Part shown: positions 5,561 to 38,726 of the stretch, piece after piece | How the letters are laid out: every line of letters begins with the position of its first letter | How positions within the stretch are numbered: position 1 is the stretch's first letter | NCBI GenBank assembly: GCA_002305475.1 | Contig: DBRB01000005.1 | Span: 1-39,202, forward strand | Length of the DNA stretch: 39,202 bases | Source: a candidate division WWE3 bacterium UBA1379 | GTDB lineage: Bacteria; Patescibacteriota; WWE3; UBA101185; UBA10185 | Direction: 5' to 3' | The notes under the pieces: generated by a model | What the model was told of the DNA's origin: nothing | The model's database searches: none | Seen by the model: the letters and a program-made list of their open reading frames with translations, nothing else | Program-made: the position numbers and the translations under genes

Positions 5561-5570
5561 TCCCTAATTT

Positions 5571-5644
5571 GGTTGCGGGGCCCGGATTTGCACCGGGGCC
5601 TTCAGATTATGAGCCTGACGAGGTACTACTCCTCTACCCCGCGT
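5571..5644 (-). tRNA. tRNA-fMet-like (anticodon CAU), initiator-type acceptor end with encoded CCA
   Basis: The reverse complement CGCGGGGTAGAGGAGTAGTACCTCGTCAGGCTCATAATCTGAAGGCCCCGGTGCAAATCCGGGCCCCGCAACCA resembles E. coli tRNA-fMet (CGCGGGGTGGAGCAGCC...CCCCGCAACCA), including the C1:A72 mismatch. Anticodon loop is CTCATAA. It is atypical in that the anticodon stem has only one G-C in place of the three consecutive G-C pairs, and the T loop is TGCAAAT. Confidence 0.65.
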
Positions 5645-5772
5645 TAGTGAATACAACAATCTAAAAACGTCTATGCACTAAGCAAGGGTTATGGTAACAG
5701 ATGATTAGAGTCATGTCAAAATCGAATTTAAAAGTAACAGTAGAATAAAATCGATATTTATAACTTATACGA

Positions 5773-6159
5773 TTATAGGAATAATTCTACCCAAAGCTGG
5801 GCGTTGGTTTTTTCTTTTGGCATACTGTCTTCTACCACTTTCCCGTTTTCTATCACTACAGAATTTGCGGGTATTAATTCGCTGATATATACTTTTTCTC
5901 CCGGTTTAATGAGATTAAGTGCGTTACGGGCACGTTCTTCTACAAACTCATTAGTTCGTTTATAGGCAATCATACTTTCTAAGGTTACCTTCTTTTCTTC
6001 GAGGGTACTAATCTCCGATTTCATATCCTCTAAACGCTTGCTACTCTGCATAACATTTAATGTAGTCCTAATAAAGTTCGCAGTTGCTATGAGTATTAAT
6101 ATACTAAGGATTAAGTATTTTATATGAGCAGGCACCGACATTAACGACATTATATACAA
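5773..6159 (-). CDS. ftsB: Septum formation initiator family protein (FtsB/DivIC-like)
   Basis: 128 aa. One N-terminal TM helix, a coiled-coil stretch (LEDMKSEISTLEEKKVTLESM), and the FtsB-family motif FVEERARNALNLIKPGEKVY near the C-terminus. Confidence 0.6.
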   Translation of the reverse strand: MYIMSLMSVPAHIKYLILSILILIATANFIRTTLNVMQSSKRLEDMKSEISTLEEKKVTLESMIAYKRTNEFVEERARNALNLIKPGEKVYISELIPANSVVIENGKVVEDSMPKEKTNAQLWVELFL

Positions 6160-6290
6160 GGTGCGTCAGGAATCAAGTTTATTTGCATTATTCAAACATA
6201 TTTATCATACATCTGTTGACATTTTGAAAACAAAGTGATAATTTGTCATCCTATAGTAACTGTGCTACACTCTGTCCTAGAAAGAAATAT

Positions 6291-7166
6291 ATGATTAGTT
6301 TAGAAACTGCGCGTAACAATTTTATAAAGCATCTGGAAAATCAAGGAAAATCCCATTCTACATTACTAGCATATGGAAAAGATATTGAACAACTTATATC
6401 TCACCTGGCTAAGAAGGGAGTAACTAATGTTAATGAAATTACCCTGGAGCATTTGGAAGATTTCATGAAAAAACTGGCTTCGGAGAGCTATACTAATAAA
6501 TCCATTTCCAGAAAAACCAACTCCACAAAGACTTTTTTTAGATTTCTGAAAGAAAAAGGACATATTGACACAAACGTTGCTGATTTATTAAAGCATCCTA
6601 AAGTCGATATCAAGGCTCCGAGAATTTTATCCAAATTAGAATACAGAGCATTGAGAGACGCAGCAAAAGAAGATCCTCGTACATCAGCCATTATCGAAGT
6701 ACTTCTGCAAACAGGAATTATGATTTCTGAACTGGCAGATATTAAGATGGAAGATCTTCACATGGATAAAGATTCTGGGACTCTTTTTATACCCGGAAAA
6801 CCGAATAAAGATTCCAGAACTATTCCTTTGAATAAAGCTGTTATCGAAGCTATAAGAAACTATATTGAAAAGGATCGTCCTAATGACAAGGATGCAAAGC
6901 ATCTATTTATCACAAAATCAGGAAAACCTCTTCTGATCAGAAATATAAGATCAACTATTGAAAGATACTATAAAGCAGCCGGTGTAGAAAATGCTAAGGT
7001 GAATGATTTGAGACATACATTTGTTGCATTTCATTTATCAAATGGAACAAACATTGTACAAGTTTCAAAGATAGCCGGTCATAAAAGAGTATCTACAACT
7101 GAAAGATATCTTCAATACATTGAAAGACCTTCCGGAGAAGAAAAAACGGAACTTGGTATTTTATAA
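6291..7166 (+). CDS. Tyrosine recombinase, XerC/XerD / phage-integrase family. The track ORF begins at TTG 6243; ATG 6291 (MISLETARNNF) is the more likely start.
   Basis: The N-terminal SAM-like domain and the C-terminal catalytic domain both match the family (TGIMISEL, IPGKPNKDSRT, NDLRHTFVAFHLSNG, GHKRVSTTERYL with the nucleophile Tyr). At the positions of conserved Arg-I and His-II the sequence has Met and Asn. A sigma70-like promoter sits upstream: TTGACA 6216-6221, TG-extended GATAAT 6236-6242. Confidence 0.8.
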   Translation: MISLETARNNFIKHLENQGKSHSTLLAYGKDIEQLISHLAKKGVTNVNEITLEHLEDFMKKLASESYTNKSISRKTNSTKTFFRFLKEKGHIDTNVADLLKHPKVDIKAPRILSKLEYRALRDAAKEDPRTSAIIEVLLQTGIMISELADIKMEDLHMDKDSGTLFIPGKPNKDSRTIPLNKAVIEAIRNYIEKDRPNDKDAKHLFITKSGKPLLIRNIRSTIERYYKAAGVENAKVNDLRHTFVAFHLSNGTNIVQVSKIAGHKRVSTTERYLQYIERPSGEEKTELGIL

Positions 7167-21290: not shown

Positions 21291-21884
21291 TTATTGATCG
21301 TTTTGGTAATATAAATGCAGTACCTTGTCTGCATACTGAAAACCTCGATCCATCGGACCGTATTTCTTTAATCCTTCTCGTTCACCATATTTCTTTATAA
21401 GATTCGCTAGAAACATCGTACCATAAGCAATATTTGTCTCCGGATCTTTAAGTGCCCTTACTGTCGGCCTGTCTTTAAACATATTTCCATATAGTTTTGC
21501 AGACAAACCGTCTGAAGCCATAATCTGCATCAAACCAACTGCACCGCTATGCGAAATTACAGTGGGTCTGCCACCGCTTTCTATAGTAATAACAGCGGCT
21601 ACTAGATCAGGATCCAAACCGTTAATCCTCGCGTGTTTAACAATCAGTTTTTCCCATTTCCTGACATTCCGAGGGTAATTTGGACTTATTCCACCAGTAA
21701 CTCCATCGGAAAAAGCACTGGCTTGAGCAACTTCACTAAAGAAATTAAAATCTATACCTGCATAATCCAAAAACAAGCCGCACGCTGACAACATAACAAT
21801 AGTTAATAACAGAGCCAAGCGAGGAACCTGTACCCATAGACGGGCGTAGGCACCAACCAGAAGAAAAGGAAGTTTTAATATCAT
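21291..21884 (-). CDS. Lytic transglycosylase (SLT domain, family 1)
   Basis: 197 aa. N-terminal TM/signal peptide; catalytic Glu in ITIESGG; AVGLMQIM motif; Y...AYN-like region. Confidence 0.85.
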   Translation of the reverse strand: MILKLPFLLVGAYARLWVQVPRLALLLTIVMLSACGLFLDYAGIDFNFFSEVAQASAFSDGVTGGISPNYPRNVRKWEKLIVKHARINGLDPDLVAAVITIESGGRPTVISHSGAVGLMQIMASDGLSAKLYGNMFKDRPTVRALKDPETNIAYGTMFLANLIKKYGEREGLKKYGPMDRGFQYADKVLHLYYQNDQ

Positions 21885-23201: not shown

Positions 23202-24902
23202 CTATTCGGTCAAACTTACCACATATACACGGCTTCCGTCCAATACATACAGATTCTTCTCATCATCTGTTACAGCTATACCCCTGATATCAGTCCATTT
23301 AGAGGTATCAGAATTCATATATTGTTTATATAGCTTTCCTTCTTTGTCCAGAACAACAATCCTGTTATTTCCCTTATCCGCAACATAAATATAGTCAAAG
23401 TCGTAATCAGTCAGAACCTGTACCGATGCAACAAATTCTTTATCAAGACCGCTGACACTAAATTCATCCTGCACACCTTGTGTGAACTTCAGCAGACTTC
23501 CGTCATTCTTCAGAATATAGATACTTCCATCAATACTGATAGAACGTCCTCCGTTTAAAACGGCATTCTGAGTCCATGTTGATGATGTGCCGTCAGAAGT
23601 GGTTTTCGTAATGGTATCTCCGCTTAAAGTATAAGTATTTCCAAGATAAACGGATGAAATAGTTCTATCTTTAAATTCATCATCTGACAAAACAAATTTC
23701 GGCGTATCCAATGATGAGGAATAGATTTTCTTCTGATCCGTATCTCCTACTAAAACATTTGAGGAAGATAATTCAATATATGAGGGGTTTACCGATGCAT
23801 CCGTGAGTTTAAGATCATAAAATACTTCCGAAGACACTCTGACCACAGTGGGATCATCAGGAGCCTGAGTCACCGCAGACGCTACCTCGGAAGGTTGTTC
23901 TTTTTCCTCTGGCTCGGTAAATACATCCATCACACTTCCCTCTGCCGTTTCAGATGTTTCAGTGCGGATCTTGTCCCTATTTATTTTAAGAGAATATAAA
24001 ACGGATACTAATAATAAAATTCCTGCAATGGTAGCTATGGTTGTAACTTTCTCTTTCTTGCTTTTTTCTTTATGCACTCTGATGTCAATGACCGATTCCC
24101 TTGGATTATTCAGACTACCGGAATCGGATACCGGATTTCTCTCTATCGAAGGGGTGGCTTTCATTTTTCTTTTGAATATCCCAAAAACTTTTGAAACCGG
24201 AAGTTTTATTCCGGGTTTTTTGTCCTCAGATCCATTCATCCCAAAATCCACCACCTCATCTTGAGAAAAACTGGTATCAACAATGATTTTCAGAAGCACA
24301 CATGATCCTTCCATAGGTAGACCTTCCGTGGAAAATGAGGTATTTAAAAGTTCTTCCGGAGGAATTTTTTCAATAAAAGGTTGAGTGGCAAAAATCAGAA
24401 CATCATCATTCTTCACTACACCGGAAGCGGCTGAATAATGACCTTCGCTGTTGGCACTGATTGCTCTTAAATCCCCATCCCGCATCAGATAACATCCTGT
24501 TTTTCCGTATGAAACCATATAAATAACATTTCCCCATAACACACCGCACAATATATTAAACTGGACCTGTTCAGAGGTCGGATGAAGTGATATGGATTCA
24601 TTAGTCAGCTTAGTCACCCGATCCCTTACATCAGCAATAGCTTTTTCTAAAGATTGAACTGGAGATATGTTTTCGGACTGATAATAGGATTCACGCAATA
24701 CATCACTTACTACCGTAGAAACTAGGTTGGTATCGAATTCTTCTGATCCGGAGATATCAAATACAGCATAAAGACTGCCCTTTTTCCCGCGTGTAGTTTC
24801 ATCATCAGGTTCAACGGTAATGGCATTGGAAAATCCTCTGGCGGATACCGGCAGATTTGGATAGATTTTTTGAACTTTGGCAGTAAGTTTTTTCAACATC
24901 AC
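23202..24902 (-). CDS. Membrane protein: cytoplasmic PP2C-like (possibly degenerate) domain, one TM helix, extracellular NHL-repeat region
   Basis: 566 aa. PPM-like stretches KKGSLYAVFDISGS and CGVLWGNVIYMVSYGKTGCYLMRDGDL, with metal-binding Asp replaced. TM helix VTTIATIAGILLLVSVLYSL. C-terminal NHL-like repeats (YIYVADKGNNRIVVLDKEGKLY; LYVLDGSRVYVVSL). Confidence 0.55.
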   Translation of the reverse strand: MMLKKLTAKVQKIYPNLPVSARGFSNAITVEPDDETTRGKKGSLYAVFDISGSEEFDTNLVSTVVSDVLRESYYQSENISPVQSLEKAIADVRDRVTKLTNESISLHPTSEQVQFNILCGVLWGNVIYMVSYGKTGCYLMRDGDLRAISANSEGHYSAASGVVKNDDVLIFATQPFIEKIPPEELLNTSFSTEGLPMEGSCVLLKIIVDTSFSQDEVVDFGMNGSEDKKPGIKLPVSKVFGIFKRKMKATPSIERNPVSDSGSLNNPRESVIDIRVHKEKSKKEKVTTIATIAGILLLVSVLYSLKINRDKIRTETSETAEGSVMDVFTEPEEKEQPSEVASAVTQAPDDPTVVRVSSEVFYDLKLTDASVNPSYIELSSSNVLVGDTDQKKIYSSSLDTPKFVLSDDEFKDRTISSVYLGNTYTLSGDTITKTTSDGTSSTWTQNAVLNGGRSISIDGSIYILKNDGSLLKFTQGVQDEFSVSGLDKEFVASVQVLTDYDFDYIYVADKGNNRIVVLDKEGKLYKQYMNSDTSKWTDIRGIAVTDDEKNLYVLDGSRVYVVSLTE

Positions 24903-26074: not shown

Positions 26075-27883
26075 TTATTTAGTTACAAAATCATATAGTT
26101 TATTTCTGATTGATATATACCCAGGTGCCCGTAAATTAAAGACGGTTTTAAATTCTGCTCCGTCAATTCCGATTCTTCCGCGATTAGTGTTAAAGTAAAC
26201 CTTTGATGTATACCCACCATTACTAATTTCTACATCTACATCCGAATCTACACTGGTAAATTTACTTCCGTAGTCATCTGCTTTATCCGCCATAGCGTCA
26301 ATTGAATAAGGGTTTCCTCCCCAACAACTGGTAGTAACAGGTGATATCCTGTCTTTTTCTTTTGAGGATCCCTTACGCCAGACAACCCAAGCATTAAGAA
26401 TATCCGCCATTTCTTTTTCTGTAAGCCATGGATTGGAACGTCCGCAAGTGGATGAATTTACATTATATGTCTGGGTATACCATGCTTTAAAAAACCAGGG
26501 CGATTTTGCTTTCTTTTCATACGCATCATTAGGCCAGCTTCCTTTAGTATCCCAGCCAATATTATTAATATATCCTCCGGTTGTAGAAGAGTAGTAGGCT
26601 ACAACACTGCTATCCAATATTTTCTTATCAGTATCATCAACTGCTTCTTTCCAACGGGATGGGGGATCCTCACTTTTGGATTTAAGAAACACCTGACAGG
26701 ACTGGGAAGTACAGATACATTTGCCGTTTTTCTTGTAGCGGTATGCATACGATCTGGCGGCTATAGCCTGAGCTTTCAAAGCATTTTCCGGCCAATCGGC
26801 TGGCATCTCCGCTAAACCATATAAATACTTCTTCATGCTCATCGTCCCATAACCCTCAACGCAAATCTCATCAGCATCATCTTCCTCTTTTACACCAGAT
26901 TTATAATAAAATTTAAGGATGTCCTTGTAATTCTGACCGGCTTCGGCACGTCCTTTTGCACCGTATTGACTCATACCATTACCGTGTGTATATGCTCCGT
27001 AACTGGAAGCGGCGAATGCTGGACGGAATCCAGGATCCGGTAGTTTTTGTTCCGCTGCTTCATAATTACCCACAGTACCGTTCCCCTCACCGTATTTCTG
27101 AGAAAGAATACTTTGCTGTTTTGCAGTCAGTTCACTGATAGCCTGTGATAAATCTTCTAGCTCTTCTTCAAGATCCTCCTGCTGACTGGAAAGAACATTT
27201 AATTCCTTCTCCTGGCTGGCTTTCTGTGAATCCAGCTGCTGTTTTAATACCAGCATCTTATTATGGGAATCTTCCAGTTCGCTTTTTAAACTTTCAGCTT
27301 CGTTTTTATCTTTTTCGAAATTTGTAATTTCCTTATTAATCGCTCCTATTAAACTGATCGTTTCAGAGGTTAAGGTTTTCTCAAAAATATATGAATAAGT
27401 AGAAAATTGGAAACCATTCAGATCTTCCTCGATTTTTTCACTTGTATTTACAAAAGGAACGGAAGATAAAAACAATTCCAGATCATTAAGTACTCCCCGC
27501 TTGCTGAAATTTCTGATAATTTTGTTTCTGATATCAATTTTTTCCGTCAGATCTTTCCGTCTGTTTTCCAGATTAGTATTTATTTCAGCCAGCTGTTCCT
27601 CCATGTTTTTAATATCCGCCTGAAGTTCATTAACCTGTGCCTGGGTAACATTCAACTGAGAGGACAAGTCAGCAATTTTTTTTGAGACACCGTCAGCTTT
27701 AGAACGAATTTCTGATAGTTTTTTTGATGTAGATTGATATTCTTCCTCTTTTTTCTCCAGTTTTTCTTCAATTTTCTTTAATTCGTCGTCGGTATCATCA
27801 GCCAGCATCACAAAACTCATAGCAGGTAGGAAAAATGTTATTGTTATTAGTACGAGTATGAGCAGTCTACGCATTGTGGACAT
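26075..27883 (-). CDS. SpoIID/LytB-domain protein with N-terminal signal anchor and long coiled-coil
   Basis: 602 aa. Coiled-coil over residues ~30-250. Then KKYLYGLAEMPADWPENALKAQAIAARSYAYRYKKNG...CTSQSCQVF, which matches the SpoIID/LytB amidase-enhancer domain signature. Confidence 0.7.
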   Translation of the reverse strand: MSTMRRLLILVLITITFFLPAMSFVMLADDTDDELKKIEEKLEKKEEEYQSTSKKLSEIRSKADGVSKKIADLSSQLNVTQAQVNELQADIKNMEEQLAEINTNLENRRKDLTEKIDIRNKIIRNFSKRGVLNDLELFLSSVPFVNTSEKIEEDLNGFQFSTYSYIFEKTLTSETISLIGAINKEITNFEKDKNEAESLKSELEDSHNKMLVLKQQLDSQKASQEKELNVLSSQQEDLEEELEDLSQAISELTAKQQSILSQKYGEGNGTVGNYEAAEQKLPDPGFRPAFAASSYGAYTHGNGMSQYGAKGRAEAGQNYKDILKFYYKSGVKEEDDADEICVEGYGTMSMKKYLYGLAEMPADWPENALKAQAIAARSYAYRYKKNGKCICTSQSCQVFLKSKSEDPPSRWKEAVDDTDKKILDSSVVAYYSSTTGGYINNIGWDTKGSWPNDAYEKKAKSPWFFKAWYTQTYNVNSSTCGRSNPWLTEKEMADILNAWVVWRKGSSKEKDRISPVTTSCWGGNPYSIDAMADKADDYGSKFTSVDSDVDVEISNGGYTSKVYFNTNRGRIGIDGAEFKTVFNLRAPGYISIRNKLYDFVTK

Positions 27884-27986
27884 AAATTAATTATAACATC
27901 TCATTGTTACAGGCAAATAAATTAAGAAAAGTTCCCACTTTCCGCAAATAAGTTGACTCTGCGGATAGTTAAGGACAATAATAGTG

Positions 27987-28516
27987 TAATGGTCCTTAAT
28001 AAAATAATTATTCCCTTAAAGTTTTGTAATTTTCTCTTTTGGGTATTAATTATTGTTTCACTTTATAACAAGCAAGCATATGCTGTTGAATATGCACCAT
28101 GTCAGCCTAATTCTTCCCACTGCACCTTAGTAGATGATCTAATCGGCTCACATTATGATTGTGCATGTGACGTATTTTGCGATCCCGGAGAAAAATGTGA
28201 AAAAAGAATGGGTATAGGTGCGAGTGGGTACTGGTGTCGGGAATCAAGCCTTTGTGTGGATCCAAATCCTGCTTATACAGACTGTACCTACGGGGAAATC
28301 GAAACATGCGGAAACAGTATATTGAACTCTTCCTGTGCAGATAATGAAAGATGTTTGTCACCTGCAAACACTGGCCCCGGCGGAAGCAGCAGACCTCAAT
28401 GTGTTCCTGATACTTCCTGTGTAAATGATCCAGGTGTCTGTGCAAATTTACCGGGGGCAGGTGCATATTGGCAACCTCTTGCACAGCAAACAATCCCCAA
28501 CAACTGGATTGTTTAA
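27987..28516 (+). CDS. N-terminal fragment of Cys-rich hairpin-anchored protein A (signal peptide plus Cys-rich region). The track ORF begins at TTG 27953; ATG 27987 gives a clean signal peptide.
   Basis: MVLNKIIIPLKFCNFLFWVLIIVSLYNKQAYA | VEYAPCQPNSSHC..., with 22 Cys in the mature part. It ends at TAA 28514-28516, while the downstream part of the same gene continues in another frame. Confidence 0.6.
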
Positions 28517-29460
28517 ACGGAACTGTATGCTGTACTTCTAATGAAAACGACTGCAATAGCATGGGTGGGATCTGTGACACCTCCTGTGGTGGCACGGGAG
28601 TTATACCCACCGGTATCTGCGGTCCAGGATCATTAGGCCAGTTATGTTGCAGACAAGAACCTGCTAAAGCCTGTGAAGTTTCGGTAGCTGCAGGAGGCCT
28701 TGGAGGTGAATGTGTAACAGCGGGTGCCTGTGGATCAGCACCCTTAACACCTGCTTCCGGATGTCTGTTTACCGAGGAATGCTGTCCTACTTCATCTACC
28801 CAAACATGCGAGGATGCGGGGGGTGTTGTTGTAAGACACGCAGGATGTGATACCCCTATAGAAGGTGTCGTTACACCTATTGGAGCATTATGCTGCAATC
28901 CCACTACCCTTCCAAAATGTAATGAAATACCTGGAGGTGGGTTTTGTACGTTTTTGCATTGTGATGTTACTCCGGTTGCTTCTTCGGATTGTGCGGCACC
29001 TAACATCTGTTGTCCAAACACACAGCGATTCTGTGAGGTTGGTAATGCGGGGGGACAACCATCATTCGGAGGTGTATGCAACGGGACACCTTGTACTACC
29101 GTTACACAAGCAAGAGAATGCTCCGTGTGTTGTCTTAATTCAGATGCGATACCTCCTCCTGACGGAAATGATGATGATCCCAGAGGTCCTACTTACACAT
29201 CCGAATACACAGGTCCAAAAATTACAGTTAATCAGCTAATAGGACTAATATACGATATAATGCTTCCAATAAGCATTGGGGTAGGATTGTTATTTATCAT
29301 AAAAGCAGGTTATGTTTTAAAAACTTCTGAAGGTAATCCTACTAAAAAACAGCAAGGTATTGATGATTTAACCGGCGCGGTGGTAGGTACATTATTTGTT
29401 GGTCTATCCTTAGTAATTTTGAGAGTAATCATTAATTCTATTTTGGGTGGCAATATTTAA
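28468..29460 (+). CDS. C-terminal fragment of Cys-rich protein A: Cys-repeat ectodomain plus the conserved C-terminal two-helix hydrophobic hairpin
   Basis: This frame is open from 28429, with no signal peptide of its own. Its Cys-rich repeats match the architecture of the intact paralog B. The last ~90 aa are near-identical to the C-terminus of B and homologous to the three small downstream proteins. Confidence 0.6.
   Translation: MATSCTANNPQQLDCLNGTVCCTSNENDCNSMGGICDTSCGGTGVIPTGICGPGSLGQLCCRQEPAKACEVSVAAGGLGGECVTAGACGSAPLTPASGCLFTEECCPTSSTQTCEDAGGVVVRHAGCDTPIEGVVTPIGALCCNPTTLPKCNEIPGGGFCTFLHCDVTPVASSDCAAPNICCPNTQRFCEVGNAGGQPSFGGVCNGTPCTTVTQARECSVCCLNSDAIPPPDGNDDDPRGPTYTSEYTGPKITVNQLIGLIYDIMLPISIGVGLLFIIKAGYVLKTSEGNPTKKQQGIDDLTGAVVGTLFVGLSLVILRVIINSILGGNI
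29245..29402 (+). repeat. 158-bp block perfectly identical to 30750..30907 (3' hairpin-module coding region shared by genes A and B). The surrounding ~260 bp are ~85-90% identical.
   Basis: Direct comparison of the two gene 3' ends. The block from CTAATATACGATATAATGC through ACATTATTTGTTGG is identical base for base. Confidence 0.85.
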
Positions 29461-29608
29461 TTATCTCTCATTTTTTAACTCAATCATAGTGGATCCGAAT
29501 AGTTACAGCGAACCATCTTCTTAAATAGATATCAACGCATCATATATACTTGACTATCAATTTGTTTACCCGTCATAATCCTATTACAAAAGTTTCTAGC
29601 AACATTAT

Positions 29609-30968
29609 TATGAAAAATATTAATAAAATTTTATTATTCTTCCTGTTTCTTTTTGTCGGCTTTCTTTTTTATACCGGTAAAGTATACGCAGACTGGTGTA
29701 CGGAACCTAGATATGCTGCTTTAGGAGCTCGATGTGTGTCTATGGCAGGATCTACGGAATTTAGATGTCCGGACGGTTTTAGCACTTATCCAGATCCTAA
29801 TGTAGTTTGCCCGGTTGATGGGGTTGAAATCTGCTGTGTACCAAACACCAGGATGTGTTTAAACAATAGTAGCAACAGCTGCCATAATACATCCTGCCCT
29901 GCAGGCTATGTTCCATCACAACCAGGTAATTTATTATGTCCGATTAACGGTCAGGTTTGTTGTACACCACAGCAAGCTCCAAACCCAGAGCAATGTCCTA
30001 CAGGTAATGGAGTATGTCTACCTAATTGTAATGTAACAGGATACACAAATGATCCGCAAAGAAGATCCTGCACAATTAACAATACAGAGTGTTGTATTAG
30101 AACAAATACCGGAAGTTGTCCGGCACCCCCAAATGGATTTTGTTTTAGCGGTACTTGCAGTGGAGGAACCGTACCGGATCCTCAAAACAGATTATGTTCT
30201 ACACCAGGAAATGTATGTTGTCTTCCAGCGAGTACTTCAACACAATGTCCGGCTTCTCCTGAAGGTTATTGTTTTTCAGGTGCATGTGCCGGGGGGACAG
30301 TACCGGATCCACAGGGAAGACAATGCTCAACCAGTGGACAAACCTGCTGTGTACCAGATCCAAGCGATGCCTGTCCTGCACCTCCAGACGGGTTTTGTTA
30401 CGATGGATTATGTCCGGGCGGTTTGATGCTGGATAGTAGATCATGTCCTAATGCAAGTCAGAATTGCTGTGTGGAGGAAGAAATTGTTATTCCTCCTACA
30501 GAATGTACCCCTAACGCAACAGTATGTGATATACAAATTGTAAATGGGGTAGTAGTTAGTGCGTGGTGCCCCTGCGGTGAATCTGGCTGCGGTACAAATA
30601 CCAGATGTGTAAAAGGAGTCGGAGATACATTCTTTTGCCAAAACGATACGATTGCTTGTATAGCTGAAGACGACCCGTTAGACCCAGATGATTCAACGTA
30701 CGAATCAGAATACACAGGACCGATAATCACAGTAAATGAGCTGATTTCTCTAATATACGATATAATGCTTCCAATAAGCATTGGGGTAGGATTGTTATTT
30801 ATCATAAAAGCAGGTTATGTTTTAAAAACTTCTGAAGGTAATCCTACTAAAAAACAGCAAGGTATTGATGATTTAACCGGCGCGGTGGTAGGTACATTAT
30901 TTGTTGGATTGTCATTAGTGATTTTAAGAATTATAATTAATTCAATCTTAGGTGGTAACATAACTTAA
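29609..30968 (+). CDS. Cys-rich secreted protein B: signal peptide, ~38-aa six-Cys tandem repeats, C-terminal VirB2/TrbC-like two-helix hairpin. ATG 29609 is the likely start; the track TTG 29550 lies inside the promoter.
   Basis: Signal peptide MKNINKILLFFLFLFVGFLFYTGKVYA | DW. About 60 Cys in repeats of the form CPAPPxGFCFSGxCxGGTVPDPQxRxCSTxGxxCC(V/L)P. C-terminus ...IYDIMLPISIGVGLLFIIKAGYVLKTSEGNPTKKQQGIDDLTGAVVGTLFVGLSLVILRIIINSILGGNIT. Promoter TTGACT(29550-29555)-N17-TCATAAT. Confidence 0.75.
30117..30476 (+). repeat. Three tandem ~126-129-bp coding repeats, each a ~38-aa six-Cys unit, within gene B
   Basis: The units start at 30117, 30246 and 30372. Each encodes CP(A)(P/S)PxG(F/Y)C(F/Y)xGxCxGG...(R)xC...CC(L/V)(P/E). 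Confidence 0.75.
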
Positions 30969-31013
30969 AGTCTAAACCTGACTTTGAATATTATTTAAAA
31001 GGAGGTGTAATCT

Positions 31014-31376
31014 ATGAACTTACAATTAATACAGGATGTTTATGCAGGACCTGGTGTAGGTACAACAGTATCCAGCTCATTAACAACTGACTTCACTGAT
31101 ATCGGTGACCTGGCTGGTTTTGTAATCAATATTATTCTTGGTATAGGTTGGGCTTTAACCTTTATCATGCTTGCCGGTGGTTTTATCAGATACATCACAT
31201 CAAGAGGTGAAACCAAGGCTACGGATTCTGCACGAAACTGGCTGACATATGCCGCTTTAGGAGGGGTTGGTTTGTTCTTCTTAACTGTTATTAAAAATAT
31301 AATACTGTCACTATTAACTGGTAATACAAGCAGACCTCAGGAAATTGACGAACAATTTGACCCGTTTGCCAACTAA
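31014..31376 (+). CDS. Small two-helix hairpin protein P1 (VirB2/TrbC-pilin-like topology), candidate major subunit
   Basis: 120 aa. Hydrophobic helix (FVINIILGIGWALTFIMLAGGFIRYI), loop TSRGETKATDSARNW, second helix. Homologous to the C-termini of A and B. Strong SD AAAGGAGGTG 13 nt upstream, and a hairpin terminator downstream. Confidence 0.7.
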   Translation: MNLQLIQDVYAGPGVGTTVSSSLTTDFTDIGDLAGFVINIILGIGWALTFIMLAGGFIRYITSRGETKATDSARNWLTYAALGGVGLFFLTVIKNIILSLLTGNTSRPQEIDEQFDPFAN

Positions 31377-31398
31377 CTTCGCTGAAATTGTACAGTGT

Positions 31399-31430
31399 AA
31401 AACCCCGGTTAATTCCGGGGTTTAGCATTT
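31399..31430 (+). terminator. Intrinsic terminator/attenuator after P1
   Basis: Perfect 8-bp stem AACCCCGG(31401-31408)/CCGGGGTT(31415-31422), loop TTAATT, followed by TAGCATTTGTAT. Confidence 0.6.
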
Positions 31431-31488
31431 GTATGACCTTGCTTCACAAATAATTGCTTTATACAAACGTCTTGCCATATAATACCTA

Positions 31489-31795
31489 TATGTTTGACTA
31501 CATCCCTTTCTCACAAGATCCAAGCGGAGGAAATGTAACGACTATCGGAGATGTGTTAGGTATGTCAATAAATATCATGATGGGAATTGTTTTTGCTTTG
31601 GGTTTTATATCGCTAGCAGCGGGGTTTGTTATATTTGTTACCAGCAGAGGAAATCCTGATGGTACTGCACGTGCAGGAAAAGCCGTATTATACGGTGCAG
31701 GTGCAGTGGCACTATCTCTGCTCGTCCTTGTAATTAAAGAAATTATCTTCAAGGCAATAGGTGTTGAAGGTGTAGACACCGTGCCGGCTATTTAG
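31489..31795 (+). CDS. Small two-helix hairpin protein P2, paralog of P1. The track ORF begins at TTG 31454; ATG 31489 is likelier.
   Basis: MFDYIPFSQDPSGGNVTTIGDVLGMSINIMMGIVFALGFISLAAGFVIFVTSRGNPDGTARAGKAVLYGAGAVALSLLVLVIKEIIF..., collinear with P1 and with the A/B C-termini. A TATAAT-like box lies ~6 nt upstream of the ATG, suggesting a possible leaderless transcript. Confidence 0.65.
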
Positions 31796-31804
31796 AATAA
31801 ATAT

Positions 31805-32233
31805 ATGTTAAAGGTATTAAGATCAGTATTAATATTTACTCTATTAATAACAGCTTTCAATGTGTTTTCAGAACCTGCATATGCCGTAAACTGCACCCCT
31901 CTTTCGGATGAAGCACCCGGACCACAGGATATAATCTGCCCTGTTATAAGAATTGTGAATATCGCTTTGCTTTCTTCCGGAGCGGTATTAATTCTGATGC
32001 TTTTATGGGGCGGTGTTAAATTAGCGCTGGCAATCGGAGATCCAAAAGCCATGCAGGCTGCATCAGCAACATGGACTTGGGCTATCATAGGATTTGCTGT
32101 AGTAATCGGCGGTGCTACTTTATTGAAAATAGTAGCGGGCTGGTTCGGATGGGAAGCAGACTTTCTTAATCCCTTTGATACACTTCAACAAAAAATACAG
32201 GAATTTATGTCGCTTTTGCATATTGAAGGTTAA
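31805..32233 (+). CDS. VirB2/TrbC-like pilin-type protein P3 (signal peptide plus two hydrophobic helices)
   Basis: 142 aa. Signal peptide MLKVLRSVLIFTLLITAFNVFSEPAYA | VNC. Mature part with two Cys, helix 1 AVLILMLLWGGVKLALAIGDPK, loop, helix 2 WAIIGFAVVIGGATLLKIVAGWFGW. This layout resembles Agrobacterium VirB2. Confidence 0.65.
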   Translation: MLKVLRSVLIFTLLITAFNVFSEPAYAVNCTPLSDEAPGPQDIICPVIRIVNIALLSSGAVLILMLLWGGVKLALAIGDPKAMQAASATWTWAIIGFAVVIGGATLLKIVAGWFGWEADFLNPFDTLQQKIQEFMSLLHIEG

Positions 32234-33525
32234 TATTCTATTAAATACGCGCCACCTAAAGTAAATGTATTGATTAAACTATTCCCTGAGTAGTAAACAT
32301 CTGAAACTTTTCCTTGTAACTCAACATTAAAACTATAACTTCTTGAAATTCCTGTTTCTAGATCTATCACTATTATATCTAAGGTACGTGTTTGTGGATT
32401 TATACCACTAAACGATACAACTTTATCTTGTATAAATGCGGGAACTAGCTCTGTTAATGGAATATTTTTGTTGAAAATATTTACAGATGTTCTTGTATTA
32501 TTAGTGAGATTATATATTACCCAGTTATTACCATTAAAATATAGTATGTCCTCTCTTGATGGATTTGTTTTTATATATGATAGCGGAGATGTATCGATGT
32601 TCTTTTTATCCCAACTGAATGTAGTTTTTTCCAAAGATGATATTATATAGTATTCATTACCTAGATTACCCACATCACTAGGCTGTTCAATAACCACGAT
32701 TTTATTCTGATTTCCTAGTACCGCTTTATATAATCCTGCTAATATTTCCGTGGATAATTCGGTTGTTACTCCTGTGTCGGTATCATATATTGAAAGCGTT
32801 GATGTTGCATTCAGAAAATTTATATTTGTTTGGTATAGCAGTTGTTTTAATTGAGGATTATAATCCTGAACCCAACCTTTTATTGAAAGTTCCCGCAATA
32901 CAGGTGTACTTTTCGACTGCCATGGTGAGAGATCCAAAGAAAATATCCTTAGATTATCCAACTGTTCTCCTGTTGTAACATAAGCCTTCTGTGCATCTAT
33001 CCATAGCAGATCACGCACTCTTGGCAATTGCTCTCTTAACAACGCAAAATAATCTTCACCTGTATTAATCTCCACTATCCTGGTCTGGTTATTATAGTAA
33101 ACTAAATAAGGTTTAAGCGTATCCGGGTATAAGAACGATGTATAATTAATCCCGATTGTATCTTTATATAATTCATTAGTAGTAGGTGCTCTTTTTAATG
33201 AATAGGAAACCTGTCCCGTTTTAATTATATCCGAGGTAATTACCTGACCTTCAATCCAAAAACCATTTAATTTGAGCTGGATAAAATCTCCATCGACAAG
33301 CCCTAATGATGCAGGGGTTGTTTGTCCCGAGTATTTATCATTAATAAATATCTGTGCTCCCGTCGGCTCGGATATTATCATCAACGTACCCTGACTCTTT
33401 TCACTAGTACCAGTAGACACATTTCGATCAAATGCGGGGTTTGTACTGACGTTCCTGAAAAAATAACCGATCAAAAAAACCACGAAAAGGATTAATATTA
33501 ATATTATTATTTGTTTCTTTTTCAT
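32230..33525 (-). CDS. Membrane-anchored extracytoplasmic protein with PEGA domain and a beta-rich (propeller-like) region
   Basis: 431 aa. N-terminal TM anchor MKKKQIIILILILFVVFLIGYFF. PEGA-like TLMIISEPTGAQIFINDKYSGQTTPASLGLVDGDF. Then ~330 aa rich in beta-strand-type repeats. Its stop shares the TTAA with the stop of P3 (convergent). Confidence 0.55.
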   Translation of the reverse strand: MKKKQIIILILILFVVFLIGYFFRNVSTNPAFDRNVSTGTSEKSQGTLMIISEPTGAQIFINDKYSGQTTPASLGLVDGDFIQLKLNGFWIEGQVITSDIIKTGQVSYSLKRAPTTNELYKDTIGINYTSFLYPDTLKPYLVYYNNQTRIVEINTGEDYFALLREQLPRVRDLLWIDAQKAYVTTGEQLDNLRIFSLDLSPWQSKSTPVLRELSIKGWVQDYNPQLKQLLYQTNINFLNATSTLSIYDTDTGVTTELSTEILAGLYKAVLGNQNKIVVIEQPSDVGNLGNEYYIISSLEKTTFSWDKKNIDTSPLSYIKTNPSREDILYFNGNNWVIYNLTNNTRTSVNIFNKNIPLTELVPAFIQDKVVSFSGINPQTRTLDIIVIDLETGISRSYSFNVELQGKVSDVYYSGNSLINTFTLGGAYLIEY

Positions 33526-33537
33526 ATCTTTATTAAA

Positions 33538-36500
33538 CTATGGACGACATGCCTCATTCCAAATTTCTCCCATTGCACGCCAATCAGTAAAACATGCAAG
33601 TGCACCAGAAGACCATCTTGATATTAAATCAACAACGCTTACACCTGCAACATCATGACTGTTTTGAAAGTTTCCGGTCTGGCTTCCTGCAAAGTGAGTA
33701 TGAGGGTGTGTACCTAAAGTATGACAACTTCCAGAACAATCAGAATGACCAAGTGTTGTTCCCGCTGCAACAGGTATACACCCCTCTGGCGATGGTCTGC
33801 CCGTAATTGTTGTATCCATCATATGAGTAAAGTATAAAGAAGGGCAAGGAGATGTAATTTCATCATTCCAGTCTCCAGAAGGATCCGTGGGATATAAATA
33901 AACAGAAACACCGCCTGTAGGATCCATTTCAGGAAAGGCACACCCGTCAAACGGAGCTACCACAGGCTGACCCTCGCATTGGTATACATCTGAGATACCT
34001 TCCGTACTACTATGGGTGCAACTATAACCTAATAATCCAGGGAACGGATTTCTACCCGGACAATTTGTACCATCACCAAATCTACCTCGTGGAGGAGCAG
34101 ATCCGGAACCGGGAGGTACAACAACCGGTAGTTCATCTCCTACACATTCACCGGAAACACATTGAAGAGAACAACATATAGAAGAATCTGAACAGGATTC
34201 CCCGGTATGTCGGCAGTCTGCTCTTGGCATACCAGCCATTTGATATCCAGTACTACTTCTTGTTGTGTCTATAGGTGGGAAGGTGATAAGAGATGAACCG
34301 AAAAACATAAAGGAGATAATCATGATAATAAAAAAAGGAAAAGCTGTTATATATAAAATCATCTTAACACCAGTGGTCACGAGTTTATCCAAGTCTTTAA
34401 AGAATGTGGAGAGCTCCCCTTTAAATATAGCCTTGAGAAATGCTTCTGTTTTATTGATAACCAGATTTGTTACAAACTTTACAACCGGAGTAATTACTTT
34501 ATCTATTATCGGGGCAAGTACAGAACCAGCACCTGAAGTACTTCCAGCAAGTAATGCCAGAAGAGCTGTTCTAATAGCTCTCGCCACTGCAGTAGATATT
34601 GCATCTTTAACCTGAAACAAAGGAGCGACATATTTACCTATTCTCTTAAAAACTTCTGTCTGAATCTGATTTGCCAAGGATGATAATTTCTGCAGATGAC
34701 CAACCCGATCCCAAGTAATATTTATATAATCAGTGCTTCTTATCCTTTTTCCTAAACCCTGCATCAATTCCGTTAATATTCTTCCATTTTCAGCTGTGTT
34801 TTCAAGATAGTTCCCATTAAAAGACAAACCCAACCTTTGCTGATTTTCTTTAAGCCATCTCAAGAATTTTTCGTTATTTTCGACCAAATCCGTGAATTCC
34901 TTTTCGCCAACCTTCAACCCTTTAACAACCGATATATCTCCGTTGAGAAAGCGGATCATTGAATTACCGCTATCATTAAAACCGACGAGAGCGCCGGTAT
35001 TCTTATCCAACACTGCATTCAAACGGCCTAAAGTTTTGTTTGCAGCATCGTGATCCGATAAAATTCCATGTAGAGTAACCGCACCCTTAAAATGTTTACC
35101 GCCAGCTACCTTCACTCTACCCACCCCCGAGATATCTACAGAAAAGGTGTTTCTCGCTGTAAATGCTTTTGTGCTTGAACCGGCAAAATCCGGATCATAC
35201 ACTAAACCTAAGTAATGTGATCTTTGTAATGTGGCTTTAACTGCCTGAGAAGGATACAAACCGTCAAGATAGGGTCTGATTTTTCCTTGCCATACATAAA
35301 CTTTAAACAGCCTTCCCTTTTCAATATTTGATAAAAAGTCCGCAAAGTCATTCTTCTCATACATAGGGTTGGCTGCCATCAGAAGCCTTCGAACATTTTC
35401 TATGCCGGAATACTGATCAACCTGGGAATTAGTATGTGAGGCTGTTTTTGTAAAGACATCGCGTAGGGTATCCCCACTATTTGGGGTAAACATACTACCA
35501 CCCTGCATCAAATATCTACCGGTAGTCTTATTCAGCAAATCGTGTTGAATGCCCTTTATGGCACCGGGTTGCGTTATACTACTTGCCAAAGTATCAAGAC
35601 GACCTTTTAGTACACCGGCCGATAGTATGCCTACCGAGCCTGAAGACTGTGCCTCTACAGCCAGATTATGAATATCTTCAACTTTCCTTCTAAATGAACT
35701 CATTACCAGGTTGTAATTCTGTTTCTGAATAGGATTAAGGTTTGCAGGTATTACTGTATCAATATCATTAAGCGCATCGCTGGCAACTTTTTGCAAGGTC
35801 TTCATTGAATTCTGAATGGTCAACCCCGCTTTTTCCCCGCCGACTACAATTTTTCCTAGGTTTTCCTGAACACCAAAAATACCTTCTTTTTTAGTAAAAT
35901 TACTTATTCTTTGTACGGCTTTTGTACCGGCAAGAAAATCCTCTATAGCAGCAATTTCATCAACTGATAAACCGGTTACATTATTTCGGAAATTTTCTAC
36001 TTCAGTAGCAACGGCATCCAAAGCACTTAAACGAAGTTCGTTATAATCCCTGTTTCTGGACGAAGTGGCCTCAACACCAACGGTAAATTTCAGGAAAGAT
36101 TGACCAACTTTGGAATAGACATCTGTGGGTATTTTCTCCTTAACAATATCGTAAGTACCGGGGGAAGTTTCCCTTACCATGTTAACTTCAGTGTCTCCCG
36201 GTTTCATCACCCTCAAACCCTGCATCTGATAAGGATTTGGTTCCGTGGTAGGTGTAATACCTAATGTATGTTTGGCATACTCTTCTGCAGGCCTGAAAAA
36301 AGGAGACTGACCTTCCGGTGCTAAATTATCCCGCCCCGCTAAAACAGGCTCCCAGAAATACTTCTGTTCAATGTAGTTTCTGAAGTCTTTCCAGTCAAAA
36401 GTGGATTTAACCCATTGTTCTATAGTTGATTTAAATTGTCCTTCGGGATCTTTTGACCAATCCCCCGGATTGATAGATACCTGAAGCTGAACGCCGGGAG

Positions 36501-36774
36501 TATCATCAATATCCCCGAATTCTAAAGCCCTCTGGGGATCATATGACTGATAACCGGCTTTTTTAGGGGTAGCTGATAATTTAAACTGGGTTTTTATATC
36601 CTCAATAACCGCGTTCTTTACTGCTGCAGGCAATTTTCCAAAGTCAATATCCTTAAATACATTCTCAATCCAGTTTGCTAATACATCAAAGGTATATTCC
36701 TCCGGAGGAGGAACTGCACCTTTTCTGGGCGGTCGGGGTATGGGTTGTCCGGGATAATATCCAACGCGCGGCAT
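33538..36774 (-). CDS. Giant membrane protein (1078 aa): large N-terminal domain of unknown function, TM segment(s), C-terminal Cys-rich ectodomain with a knottin-like six-Cys framework and M23/LytM-like motifs
   Basis: No signal peptide and no P-loop. Hydrophobic segment KMILYITAFPFFIIMIISFMFFGSSLI. It is followed by CRHTGESCSDSSICCSLQCVSGEC (C-x6-C-x5-CC-x3-C-x4-C), then FTHMMD (HxxxD), then CHTLGTHPHTHF (HxH). Confidence 0.6.
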   Translation of the reverse strand: MPRVGYYPGQPIPRPPRKGAVPPPEEYTFDVLANWIENVFKDIDFGKLPAAVKNAVIEDIKTQFKLSATPKKAGYQSYDPQRALEFGDIDDTPGVQLQVSINPGDWSKDPEGQFKSTIEQWVKSTFDWKDFRNYIEQKYFWEPVLAGRDNLAPEGQSPFFRPAEEYAKHTLGITPTTEPNPYQMQGLRVMKPGDTEVNMVRETSPGTYDIVKEKIPTDVYSKVGQSFLKFTVGVEATSSRNRDYNELRLSALDAVATEVENFRNNVTGLSVDEIAAIEDFLAGTKAVQRISNFTKKEGIFGVQENLGKIVVGGEKAGLTIQNSMKTLQKVASDALNDIDTVIPANLNPIQKQNYNLVMSSFRRKVEDIHNLAVEAQSSGSVGILSAGVLKGRLDTLASSITQPGAIKGIQHDLLNKTTGRYLMQGGSMFTPNSGDTLRDVFTKTASHTNSQVDQYSGIENVRRLLMAANPMYEKNDFADFLSNIEKGRLFKVYVWQGKIRPYLDGLYPSQAVKATLQRSHYLGLVYDPDFAGSSTKAFTARNTFSVDISGVGRVKVAGGKHFKGAVTLHGILSDHDAANKTLGRLNAVLDKNTGALVGFNDSGNSMIRFLNGDISVVKGLKVGEKEFTDLVENNEKFLRWLKENQQRLGLSFNGNYLENTAENGRILTELMQGLGKRIRSTDYINITWDRVGHLQKLSSLANQIQTEVFKRIGKYVAPLFQVKDAISTAVARAIRTALLALLAGSTSGAGSVLAPIIDKVITPVVKFVTNLVINKTEAFLKAIFKGELSTFFKDLDKLVTTGVKMILYITAFPFFIIMIISFMFFGSSLITFPPIDTTRSSTGYQMAGMPRADCRHTGESCSDSSICCSLQCVSGECVGDELPVVVPPGSGSAPPRGRFGDGTNCPGRNPFPGLLGYSCTHSSTEGISDVYQCEGQPVVAPFDGCAFPEMDPTGGVSVYLYPTDPSGDWNDEITSPCPSLYFTHMMDTTITGRPSPEGCIPVAAGTTLGHSDCSGSCHTLGTHPHTHFAGSQTGNFQNSHDVAGVSVVDLISRWSSGALACFTDWRAMGEIWNEACRP

Positions 36775-36855
36775 ATGAAAATAGTATATACTAGATTTTA
36801 CGATTTTTTAATTAAATTCTTGCATTATTAACCCGTTTGTGGAAAAATTCTAAAT

Positions 36856-38193
36856 ATGAGGATGTTATCATTTTCCAGATTATTCAAGGTTTTTATCGTT
36901 GTCTCTTCTATTCTTTTTTACCTTGGTGCAACTACTGACAGAGCATTGGCTCAAGGAGATGGGGTTTCGGGAGTGATTTATGCTGACGGAGAAGAAAAAC
37001 TTTATGAAAACATCCAACTTTTCGTACCTGGATTAGATATCAGAAGAACAGCATTAAACCATTTAGCTGCTGCTGCTTTTGATGGAATACCCTTTATAGC
37101 TTTCGGAAAAAACATCAGTGAAATGCAGGGATGCGGTGCAAAATTTTTGCAGGATAACGGTGCGGATGTAACCTGCCAGGGTTGTGCACAGAATCTGGAA
37201 TGCGAAGATCTTCAATTGCTGTATAAACCGGGTTCCCAGTTTGCTCAGACAAGAGTAGCGGGCACTTTAATCGGTTTATCTAATTTTCTGGGTGGGGCCG
37301 CTATCAATGAACCGGCACCGGTAAATTTGGCTTACTGGTGGAATGACAATGTTAACAAAGTACCTTTTGTCGGTCATGCTCTTGCAGCAGATTCAACTAC
37401 CTATAGCGGACCATTTTTAGGGGCCATTTTATTTGTCTGGAAATTAACCAGAAATATCGCTTACGGATTGATGTCGGTTGTAATGTTGGCCACCGGATTA
37501 ATGATTATAACCAGAAAGAAACTAGGACCACAGGCAGCAGTAACTGCTCAGCTTGCTCTTCCAAAAATAATTATTGCTCTGGTATTGATAACATTCAGTT
37601 ACCCCATCGGGGCTCTTGGAGTATCTTTAGCATATGTTCTGAGAGGGAACGTCGGGCCGATGTTAGCAGATGTGGATTGGGGAGGATTAGGCAATAATGT
37701 ATTAACAGCAACAGATGGTTTTTCTGTTGGATTTATCGCCTCAGCTCTCTTTGCTGTTGTTACCGCAATCATGGGTCTAGGTCCTGTAATACTGATAATC
37801 TCCTTACTGGTGATCTTTGTTGCAATCGTAGCAGGTATTCTCGTATATATTAAATTTTTCACCATCTACATTAAACTGCTATTTTCTATTATCGCCGCTC
37901 CTTTCATATTCACAATCGGAGCAATTCCCGGTCAGGATCAGGCAACAATAAACTGGTTTAAAAGTTTTATCGCTAACGTGATAGCAATACCAGCTATGTT
38001 TTTTATATACACATTATCTTTCCTTTTATCCTGGAAAATTATGTTAACGGCATTTACTGAAGCAACCGTGTTCGGTGGTGGTCCACTTATGCTCTTCATA
38101 GTCCCCTTCGTATATATATACGGTGCATTCTTTGCCAGACAGGTTCCGGATAAAATCGAAGCACTGATAGTAGGTGAAAAGAAGAGAAAATAA
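36856..38193 (+). CDS. Polytopic membrane protein with VirB6/TrbL-like topology (signal peptide, ~150-aa extracytoplasmic domain, 6 or more TM helices)
   Basis: 445 aa. Signal peptide MRMLSFSRLFKVFIVVSSILFYLGATTDRALA. Soluble Cys-containing domain (CGAKFLQDNGADVTCQGCAQNLEC). Then a densely hydrophobic C-terminal two-thirds. Transcribed divergently from the 1078-aa gene. Confidence 0.55.
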   Translation: MRMLSFSRLFKVFIVVSSILFYLGATTDRALAQGDGVSGVIYADGEEKLYENIQLFVPGLDIRRTALNHLAAAAFDGIPFIAFGKNISEMQGCGAKFLQDNGADVTCQGCAQNLECEDLQLLYKPGSQFAQTRVAGTLIGLSNFLGGAAINEPAPVNLAYWWNDNVNKVPFVGHALAADSTTYSGPFLGAILFVWKLTRNIAYGLMSVVMLATGLMIITRKKLGPQAAVTAQLALPKIIIALVLITFSYPIGALGVSLAYVLRGNVGPMLADVDWGGLGNNVLTATDGFSVGFIASALFAVVTAIMGLGPVILIISLLVIFVAIVAGILVYIKFFTIYIKLLFSIIAAPFIFTIGAIPGQDQATINWFKSFIANVIAIPAMFFIYTLSFLLSWKIMLTAFTEATVFGGGPLMLFIVPFVYIYGAFFARQVPDKIEALIVGEKKRK

Positions 38194-38267: not shown

Positions 38268-38726
38268 ATGTTATTGGCAAAAAACCGTAAAGCTTTTTAC
38301 GATCATGAAATATTGGAAAAATTTACTGCGGGCATAGCTTTAAAAGGCTATGAAGTCAAAGCAGTGAAAGAAGGTAAGGTGAACATGGACGGTTCATTTG
38401 TACAGGTATTGGGTCATGAGGTTTATGTAATCAATATGTATATCGGACAATATTCCAAACAAAGCCAGGAAACAGGGAAACAACAGTCTAGAACAAGCAG
38501 AAAGCTGCTTCTTAGAAAAGAAGAAATTGAAAAACTGCAAAGAGAACTGGCACAGAAAGGAAAAACCGCAATTCCTCTTGCGTTGATCTTATCCCATAAT
38601 ATGATAAAATTGGAGTTCGGAATAGCAAAAGGACGTAAAAAGGTTGAGAAAAAGCACCTTGAAAAAGAAAGACAGATCAAGCGTGATCTGGAAAAAGCTG
38701 TCAAAGAAACACATAAGTATTATTAA
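38268..38726 (+). CDS. smpB: SsrA-binding protein SmpB
   Basis: 152 aa. NRKAFYDHEILEKFTAGIALKGYEVKAVKEG...GKTAIPLALILSHNMIKLEFGIAKGRKK and a basic C-terminal tail. Confidence 0.9.
   Translation: MLLAKNRKAFYDHEILEKFTAGIALKGYEVKAVKEGKVNMDGSFVQVLGHEVYVINMYIGQYSKQSQETGKQQSRTSRKLLLRKEEIEKLQRELAQKGKTAIPLALILSHNMIKLEFGIAKGRKKVEKKHLEKERQIKRDLEKAVKETHKYY

Follow-up and report, generated by a model that had tools for sequence, protein, structure and literature searches.

Type IV secretion systems (T4SS) have been described in the Patescibacteria, ultrasmall bacteria that also go by the name of candidate phyla radiation (CPR). Quiñonero-Coronel et al. (2025) found VirB4 in 2,417 of 3,035 Patescibacteria assemblies, with about 20% of the assemblies having no detectable VirB4, and the Patescibacteria VirB4 clade was nested in the mating-pair formation class FATA (MPF-FATA) (PMC12102498). 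The same survey reported 441 VirB2 arrays of 2-11 genes each, found partly with the Pfam family PF18895 (T4SS_pilin), as well as T4SS genes near dnaA and dnaN; VirB6 was scarce or absent in some classes, and no adhesins were detected (PMC12102498). The Patescibacteria T4SS derives from the conjugation machinery of monoderm MPF-FATA bacteria. In this study, we analyzed contig DBRB01000005.1, a stretch of 39,202 bp (the window) that is an entire contig of a public metagenome-assembled genome. It carries an array of pilin-like genes with a set of linked envelope genes. With a probability of roughly 85%, this locus represents the half of the published Patescibacteria T4SS that provides the pilins, the channel and the cutting of the cell wall.

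The closest known counterpart is found in Southlakia epibionticum, in which transposon sequencing by Wang et al. (2023; PMC10633639) showed the T4SS cluster, pilin array included, to be essential. In strain ML1, the cluster comprises a PEGA protein (SEML1_0005), a lysozyme (SEML1_0006), a protein of 1113 amino acids (aa) with a C-terminal Hedgehog/DD-peptidase domain (SEML1_0007), VirB4 (SEML1_0008), PrgI (SEML1_0010), a VirB6-like protein (SEML1_0013) and six PF18895 pilins (SEML1_0014-0019) (PMC10633639). The parts list of the window is that of this cluster minus the ATPase half. A sequence-only reading of the window had presented the locus as uncharacterised or otherwise novel and had likened it to the Ced system. 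Both VirB2-like arrays and the Patescibacteria T4SS are in print (PMC10633639, PMC12102498, PMC12857230), so the first description no longer applies, and the Ced comparison adds nothing.

The pilin array and its linked genes

Alignment confirmed that five consecutive genes on the plus strand share a hydrophobic hairpin of two helices joined by a short polar loop, (K/T)TS(E/R)G(N/D)P. The hairpin forms the C-terminus or the whole length of each protein. The array consists of two extended pilins, A (27989-29460) and B (29610-30968), followed by P1 (31014-31376, 120 aa), P2 (31490-31795, 101 aa) and P3 (31805-32233, 142 aa; with a signal peptide, two cysteines and a C-terminal tail); the starts of B and P2 given here lie 1-2 nt from those proposed earlier. 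In a Pfam scan, PF18895 matched four of the five proteins. P3 reached 30.3 bits, above the gathering cut-off of 26.6 bits, and A, B and P1 fell slightly under it at 23.7-24.8 bits (E 2-5e-5; 2.3e-5 for A and 5e-5 for P1). P2 had no Pfam match and only a weak one to the NCBIfam family 'Mbov_0395 pilin-like' (E 0.003). In BLASTP searches, P1 and P2 each matched the other's orthologues; the orthologues of P1 (40-68% identity) occupy the same position in the array, and those of P2 likewise keep theirs. PF04956 was matched by none of the window proteins. The hairpins are VirB2-type T4SS pilin modules of PF18895, the type that had been proposed for them. The P1 class also has a short leader of 7-14 aa that ends in (K/N)VYA, VYA in the window, and is followed by Q, A or V (31014-31050 and the P1 orthologues of L001-L024). 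A real hydrophobic core, as in the classical signal peptides of A, B and P3, is missing from this leader.

Next to the array stand genes of the kind expected for the remainder of such a system. The 445-aa polytopic membrane protein (36856-38193, plus strand) consists of a signal or transmembrane helix, an ectodomain of about 160 aa with four cysteines and five long transmembrane helices. It had no Pfam match and no sequence match in the PDB, and the same was true of 45 of its relatives. In a Foldseek search, TrwI was the top hit (probability 0.99-1.0), the best structural matches were two VirB6-type proteins of T4SS, and the model showed the bundle of at least five long transmembrane helices by which the VirB6 fold is recognized. 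Members of the family were found in candidate division WWE3 and in other Patescibacteria, and a linkage to virB3/virB4, absent in the window, is present in relatives. Thus, the protein is VirB6-like by structure and position; the VirB6/TrbL-like assignment made earlier stood as to the fold and failed as to the PF04610 profile. No description was found of a VirB6 family that is too divergent for profile models and belongs to a split locus.

The 1078-aa protein (33538-36774, minus strand; the giant) contains no cysteine in residues 1-835 and 16 in residues 836-1078, its C-terminal 243 aa. It has one long hydrophobic segment (residues 798-835, nt 34270-34383) and no signal peptide. Based on the cysteine distribution, the single hydrophobic segment and the missing signal peptide, the N-terminal 835 aa are probably cytoplasmic and the Cys-rich C-terminal ectodomain (nt 33541-34269) extracellular. 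Orthologues of the giant occur in 24 loci. Searches for further homologues, with the single sequence and with a 25-sequence alignment, returned only the giant itself; the family profile gave only coiled-coil noise among PDB sequences, and nothing in Pfam matched the N-terminal ~800 aa. At the C-terminus, the 25 giants carry different domains: M23 in three (E 1.7e-24 in L031), a C39-like domain in one and an HExxH motif in 15. The M23-like character that had been claimed for the window giant was upheld in part. The protein has the HxH motif (HPHTH, from residue 1023), and the order of its motifs, PVVAPFDG...GG.SVYLYP...YFTHM...THPHTHF, resembles M23 as read from the sequence, without a significant profile match; the HxxxD motif is absent and is represented only by HxxD (HMMD). 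Since three of 25 relatives have M23 at the same position and the window protein is unmatched, M23 appears right for the position in the family and unproven for the window giant. The knottin fold that had been suggested for this region was not supported. A near-invariant N-terminal sequence, M..NP.YPGYYPG, is also shared by the giants of the 25 genomes, with M1, G5 and G9 invariant (window 36730-36774). This may be a recognition or docking motif.

The 431-aa protein downstream of the giant (32230-33525, minus strand) is bitopic, with an N-terminal transmembrane anchor, a PEGA domain and a beta-rich region. The PEGA domain, already noticed in the sequence, is borderline in the window (20.9 bits against a cut-off of 20.8) and clear in the L013 orthologue (E 1.8e-10). 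The position is filled by a membrane-anchored protein in most relatives and by this PEGA protein here. On the other side, divergent from the array, lies a 602-aa coiled-coil protein with a SpoIID domain (26075-27883, minus strand; PF08486, E 2.3e-18). It is adjacent in most relatives at 46-59% identity, with lower values in L006 (39%) and L024 (30%). This conserved neighbour may be part of the system. A protein with an SLT lytic transglycosylase domain (21291-21884, minus strand; E 2.5e-19) is encoded 6 kb upstream of the locus; it may be a housekeeping enzyme or else a partner of the VirB1 type.

The order SpoIID, extended pilin-P1-(P1/P2)-P3, membrane-anchored protein, giant and VirB6-like is kept in about 23 genomes. 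In four of the relatives (L005, L008, L011 and L013), the locus extends further into genes for a PrgI/VirB3-like protein (PF12666, E 3e-11), a protein of 232-235 aa that we name TrsD-like, weakly similar to the N-terminus of TraC/VirB4 (TraC_F_IV-like), and VirB4 (P-loop_TraG E 8e-29, AAA_10), followed by dnaN and, at a greater distance, dnaA. The more distant L025, L026, L031, L035 and L039 show the same link to the VirB4 module. When metagenomes were scanned with these VirB4 sequences, 80 loci were obtained, 46 of which were informative; in 14 of the 46, the VirB6-like gene lies directly upstream of PrgI, as it does in L005, L008, L011, L013, L025, L031 and L039. This synteny bears out the earlier proposal that the linked genes form a T4SS-associated unit.

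The remaining 32 of the 46 VirB4 loci have no pilin-half genes nearby and are of a split type, which is also represented by about 19 genomic loci of the pilin half. In the window, SmpB (38268-38726, plus strand) directly follows the VirB6-like gene, which places the locus in the split type. Because of this position of SmpB and because the split arrangement is common in the lineage, the PrgI-TrsD-VirB4 module of this genome is most probably located near the replication origin, on another contig. An ATPase encoded elsewhere had been anticipated, and the ratio of 32 split to 14 contiguous loci fits it. The scan did not return the contigs of L001 and L002, and no single genome among the loci showed both halves apart; a search of literature and supplements turned up nothing on VirB4 in the complete WWE3 genome CP006914, a close relative with the split arrangement.

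Several side observations were made on the relatives. Between the VirB6-like gene and SmpB, many WWE3 genomes (L009-L023, about 11.2-15.2 kb per locus) encode a second large protein of 1210-1395 aa with no Pfam match, which is absent from the window. The VirB4 homologue of L026 (10380-13577) has 1066 aa; Intein_splicing was matched by two of the 40 large open reading frames (ORFs) scanned, probably including this one. Some close relatives are found in third-party annotation (TPA) assemblies titled 'uncultured Candidatus Saccharibacteria' or 'Gammaproteobacteria'. These labels look unreliable because the locus structure matches that of candidate division WWE3 genomes.

Extended pilins with cysteine-rich ectodomains

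Both A and B have a signal peptide, a Cys-rich repeat ectodomain and a C-terminal PF18895 hairpin. B (452 aa) contains 44 cysteines and at least five 6-Cys repeats, five of them clean. Gene A had been read as one gene at 27987-29460. It starts at 27989, and its ORF is broken by a -1 frameshift: the frame of 27989-28516 is followed by the -1 frame up to 29460, and the ORFs as listed (27953-28516 and 28468-29460) are in different frames. From the sequence, the likely site is a G5 homopolymer at 28453-28457 on the plus strand. Addition of one G to this run gives a 490-aa ORF with 49 cysteines, and the repaired junction, CANLPGGRCILATSCTANNPQQLDCLNGTVCC, fits the 6-Cys repeat C-x-C-x-C-x-C-x-CC exactly. 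Only the C-terminal ORF of 330 aa (P0035) appears in the public annotation. One-base homopolymer errors are common in assemblies; possible causes of the frameshift are a sequencing error, slipped-strand switching and a lesion in a pseudogene.

The hairpins of A and B are 89–95% identical, and the DNA that encodes them is a repeat of 266 nt with 89% identity (29191-29456 and 30696-30961, both on the plus strand). The two ectodomains cannot be aligned with each other, and no DNA-level tandem repeats were detected in the Cys-repeat region. An exhaustive search with B returned 781 cluster representatives at E <= 1e-3, and the following figures are drawn from the best 150 of these. In nearly all of the 150, the C-terminal hairpin was the matching part; 85 were extended (at least 200 aa), the longest having 662 aa. 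The N-terminal part contained at least 6% cysteine in 78 of the 85 extended relatives, PF18895 was matched by 80 (best E 2.2e-11), and their ectodomains were covered by no Pfam family. These ectodomains measure 130-570 aa with 6–16% cysteine. The Cys-rich extended pilins are therefore a large, widespread subfamily of PF18895 and not peculiar to this genome. The fusion of a pilin to a Cys-repeat ectodomain had been thought undescribed. No description was found of a PF18895 pilin subfamily with ectodomains of 6–16% cysteine, which are here carried by the first pilins of the array.

Four pilin classes in the fixed order extended, P1, P2, P3 were found in 22 genomes; the array invariably begins with the extended class, and P3 closes it in 22 loci. 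No description of this conserved gene order was found. The fixed order argues for a hetero-oligomeric structure over antigenic variation.

VirB2 pilins such as those of the F-pilus and T-pilus have the N-terminus outside. The extended pilins would keep this topology, in which the loop would lie inside and the two termini outside. According to the mechanism proposed here, VirB4 would extract the pilins from the membrane and assemble P1, P2 and P3 on the VirB6-like platform, which would give rise to a pilus or to a conduit that spans the wall. The ectodomain of the giant, and perhaps the SpoIID neighbour as well, would open the peptidoglycan. The interchangeable peptidase module of the giant family (M23, HExxH, C39-like, M15) points to wall cutting, of the own or the host wall, as a conserved step. 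The disulfide-rich N-terminal ectodomains might then be displayed on the filament or the cell surface as built-in host-cell adhesins, in the role that VirB5 or PrgB plays in other systems.

Whether the extended class is an undescribed kind of T4SS pilin, in which a hairpin carries a fast-evolving modular 6-Cys-repeat ectodomain at the tip of, or sparsely along, a P1/P2/P3 filament, is a tentative proposal to which we give less than even odds. If true, the pilus of a monoderm epibiont would come with its own exchangeable adhesin for host recognition. The anchor module would be homogenised, as the 89% nucleotide identity between A and B suggests, while the ectodomains would be exchanged or turned on and off, the G5 tract being one possible means. 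Together with a VirB6 that is invisible to hidden Markov models (HMM), this would explain why adhesins and VirB6 seem to be missing in parts of the Patescibacteria. In the sole species of Patescibacteria tested, epibiotic growth requires the T4SS, and the locus offers candidates for both of the missing components: a VirB6-like family overlooked by profiles, and pilins with Cys-rich domains that could mediate host contact.

Points against the assignment and alternative explanations

A number of results weigh against the assignment to a T4SS or against parts of it. Pfam scanning of the window proteins and tblastn found no VirB4, VirB3 or VirD4 in the 39 kb, in agreement with the sequence-only reading as to VirB4 and VirD4; as the window is the entire contig, the ATPase half of this genome is inferred and not seen. 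PF04610 (VirB6/TrbL) matched neither the 445-aa protein nor any of the 45 relatives scanned (27 homologues and 18 further). Residues 838-1078 of the giant did not match M23 (PF01551) at E <= 10, a jackhmmer search from the M23 domain of L031 did not reach this region, and its hhalign comparison with M23 gave a probability of 2%. As for the pilins, PF04956 was matched by just one of the 85 extended relatives (E 4.9e-4), and a profile of 107 hairpins recovered no T4SS pilin (VirB2, TraA, CedA1) among PDB sequences. In the AlphaFold2 (AF2) model of B, the hairpin was modelled well (H375-407/H412-447; predicted local distance difference test, pLDDT, 91-97), and the ectodomain had a pLDDT below 50, i.e. 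was unmodelled. The comparison with pilin folds that had been suggested returned only non-specific hairpins: Foldseek of this model against the PDB gave generic helical hairpins at E >= 0.9 throughout, among them ATP synthase subunit c and a type III secretion needle protein. A fold search with a bare hairpin is uninformative. To these points are added the two frames of gene A and the fact that a pilus has so far not been seen in any Patescibacterium (PMC12857230).

In the main alternative, which is unlikely but serious, the hairpin is a membrane anchor, the extended proteins are tethered disulfide-rich surface adhesins, the small ones are channel subunits of the T4SS, and no filament is formed. 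Gram-positive and mycoplasma conjugation systems, which have pilin-like proteins without a pilus, provide the analogy. The fold search cannot separate a pilin hairpin from other hairpins, the absence of an observed pilus suits an anchor, and the weak NCBIfam matches are to 'Mbov_0395 pilin-like conjugal transfer protein' of a mycoplasma integrative and conjugative element. An ectodomain of 350-570 aa would also seem hard to pack in a VirB2-type helical filament. However, the extended class shares its loop and helix motifs with the small pilins and always opens the array, the four classes in fixed order resemble a set of major and minor subunits, and the pilin array is essential in S. epibionticum. 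A holin or simple-anchor reading of the hairpins and a stand-alone wall-remodelling locus were also considered, and both conflict with the VirB4 synteny.

If the ATPase half had been lost and the pilin half were eroding, the locus would be a decaying T4SS remnant. The frameshift in gene A, the absence of VirB4 from the contig and the approximately 20% of Patescibacteria assemblies without detectable VirB4 would all fit such decay. Against this, all the other genes are intact, including the second extended pilin, B; the split arrangement is that of the majority in the lineage (32 of the 46 VirB4 loci, as well as some 19 genomic loci of the pilin half), and a one-base homopolymer error is an ordinary assembly fault. 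Decay is very unlikely. Least credible of all is a locus for remodelling the envelope or cell wall that has nothing to do with secretion, with holin-like hairpins or small membrane regulators: SpoIID and the peptidase domains of the giant family do act on peptidoglycan, housekeeping genes flank the locus and the window has no ATPase, but these genes are neighbours of PrgI-TrsD-VirB4 in at least four genomic and 14 metagenomic loci, the 445-aa protein is structurally closest to two VirB6-type proteins, the hairpins match PF18895, and the T4SS cluster of S. epibionticum has the same parts list.

As to the rest of the contig, the organism is a WWE3-like (Katanobacteria) bacterium, and the housekeeping genes (FtsH, a class I tRNA synthetase of the W/Y type, the Suf system, LeuRS, L25 and SmpB) are typical of a bacterium with a reduced genome. 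An IS200-like Y1 transposase and a tyrosine recombinase at 4982-7166, where the GC content is 0.33-0.35 compared with about 0.39 elsewhere, may represent a small mobile insertion. A 566-aa protein (23202-24902, minus strand) belongs to no Pfam family and has weak NCBIfam matches to beta-propeller repeats at its C-terminus.

Comparison with described systems

The secretion half proposed here most resembles the cluster of S. epibionticum ML1. Both have an array of PF18895 pilins divergent from the machinery genes, a polytopic VirB6-like protein, and an approximately 1100-aa protein that ends in a domain of the peptidoglycan-peptidase type and is followed by a PEGA protein. The pair of giant and PEGA protein mirrors SEML1_0007 and SEML1_0005, a comparison made by architecture from the published tables. 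In both, PrgI, a TrsD-like protein and VirB4 stand beside dnaN and dnaA, which is seen here in the relatives, and no relaxase or coupling protein is nearby. The two differ in that the window has a split locus, in which the VirB6-like gene is followed by SmpB and VirB4 is not on the contig. The VirB6-like protein has 998-1088 aa in S. epibionticum, whereas it has 445 aa and is HMM-invisible here. An M15-like domain and a separate lysozyme are found there; here, it is the giant that bears the fused hydrolase module, which in its family alternates between M23, HExxH and C39-like forms. Finally, the first pilins of the window carry ectodomains of 130-570 aa, and the four classes stand in fixed order.

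Similar to the VirB2/TrbC/TraA pilins of diderm bacteria (T-pilus, F-pilus), those of the window have a signal peptide (A, B and P3), two hydrophobic helices and a short polar or basic loop, and are associated with VirB4 and VirB6-type proteins. Unlike them, they belong to a monoderm organism, are without a PF04956 match, form several paralogue classes, one of which has a large N-terminal ectodomain, and are not accompanied by VirB5. The VirB6-like protein shares only 8-11% identity with TrwI (R388) and DotA (Legionella Dot/Icm), and its N-terminal ectodomain with four conserved cysteines has no counterpart in these two proteins.

In the Enterococcus plasmid pCF10, another MPF-FATA system, the genes are ordered prgH-prgI-prgJ-prgK. 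The order VirB6-like, PrgI (VirB3-like) and VirB4 is the same in the relatives of the window, and both systems include a large, membrane-anchored, multi-domain protein, the wall hydrolase PrgK in pCF10 and a candidate wall hydrolase here. In contrast, pCF10 has no pilins and the adhesin PrgB instead, possesses a relaxase and a coupling protein, and carries LytM/SLT/CHAP hydrolase domains on a PrgK with an N-terminal anchor. In sum, the kind of system found in the window has already been described; what it adds to the described systems is the Cys-rich extended pilins, the order of four pilin classes and an HMM-invisible VirB6 with a split locus, for none of which a description was found.

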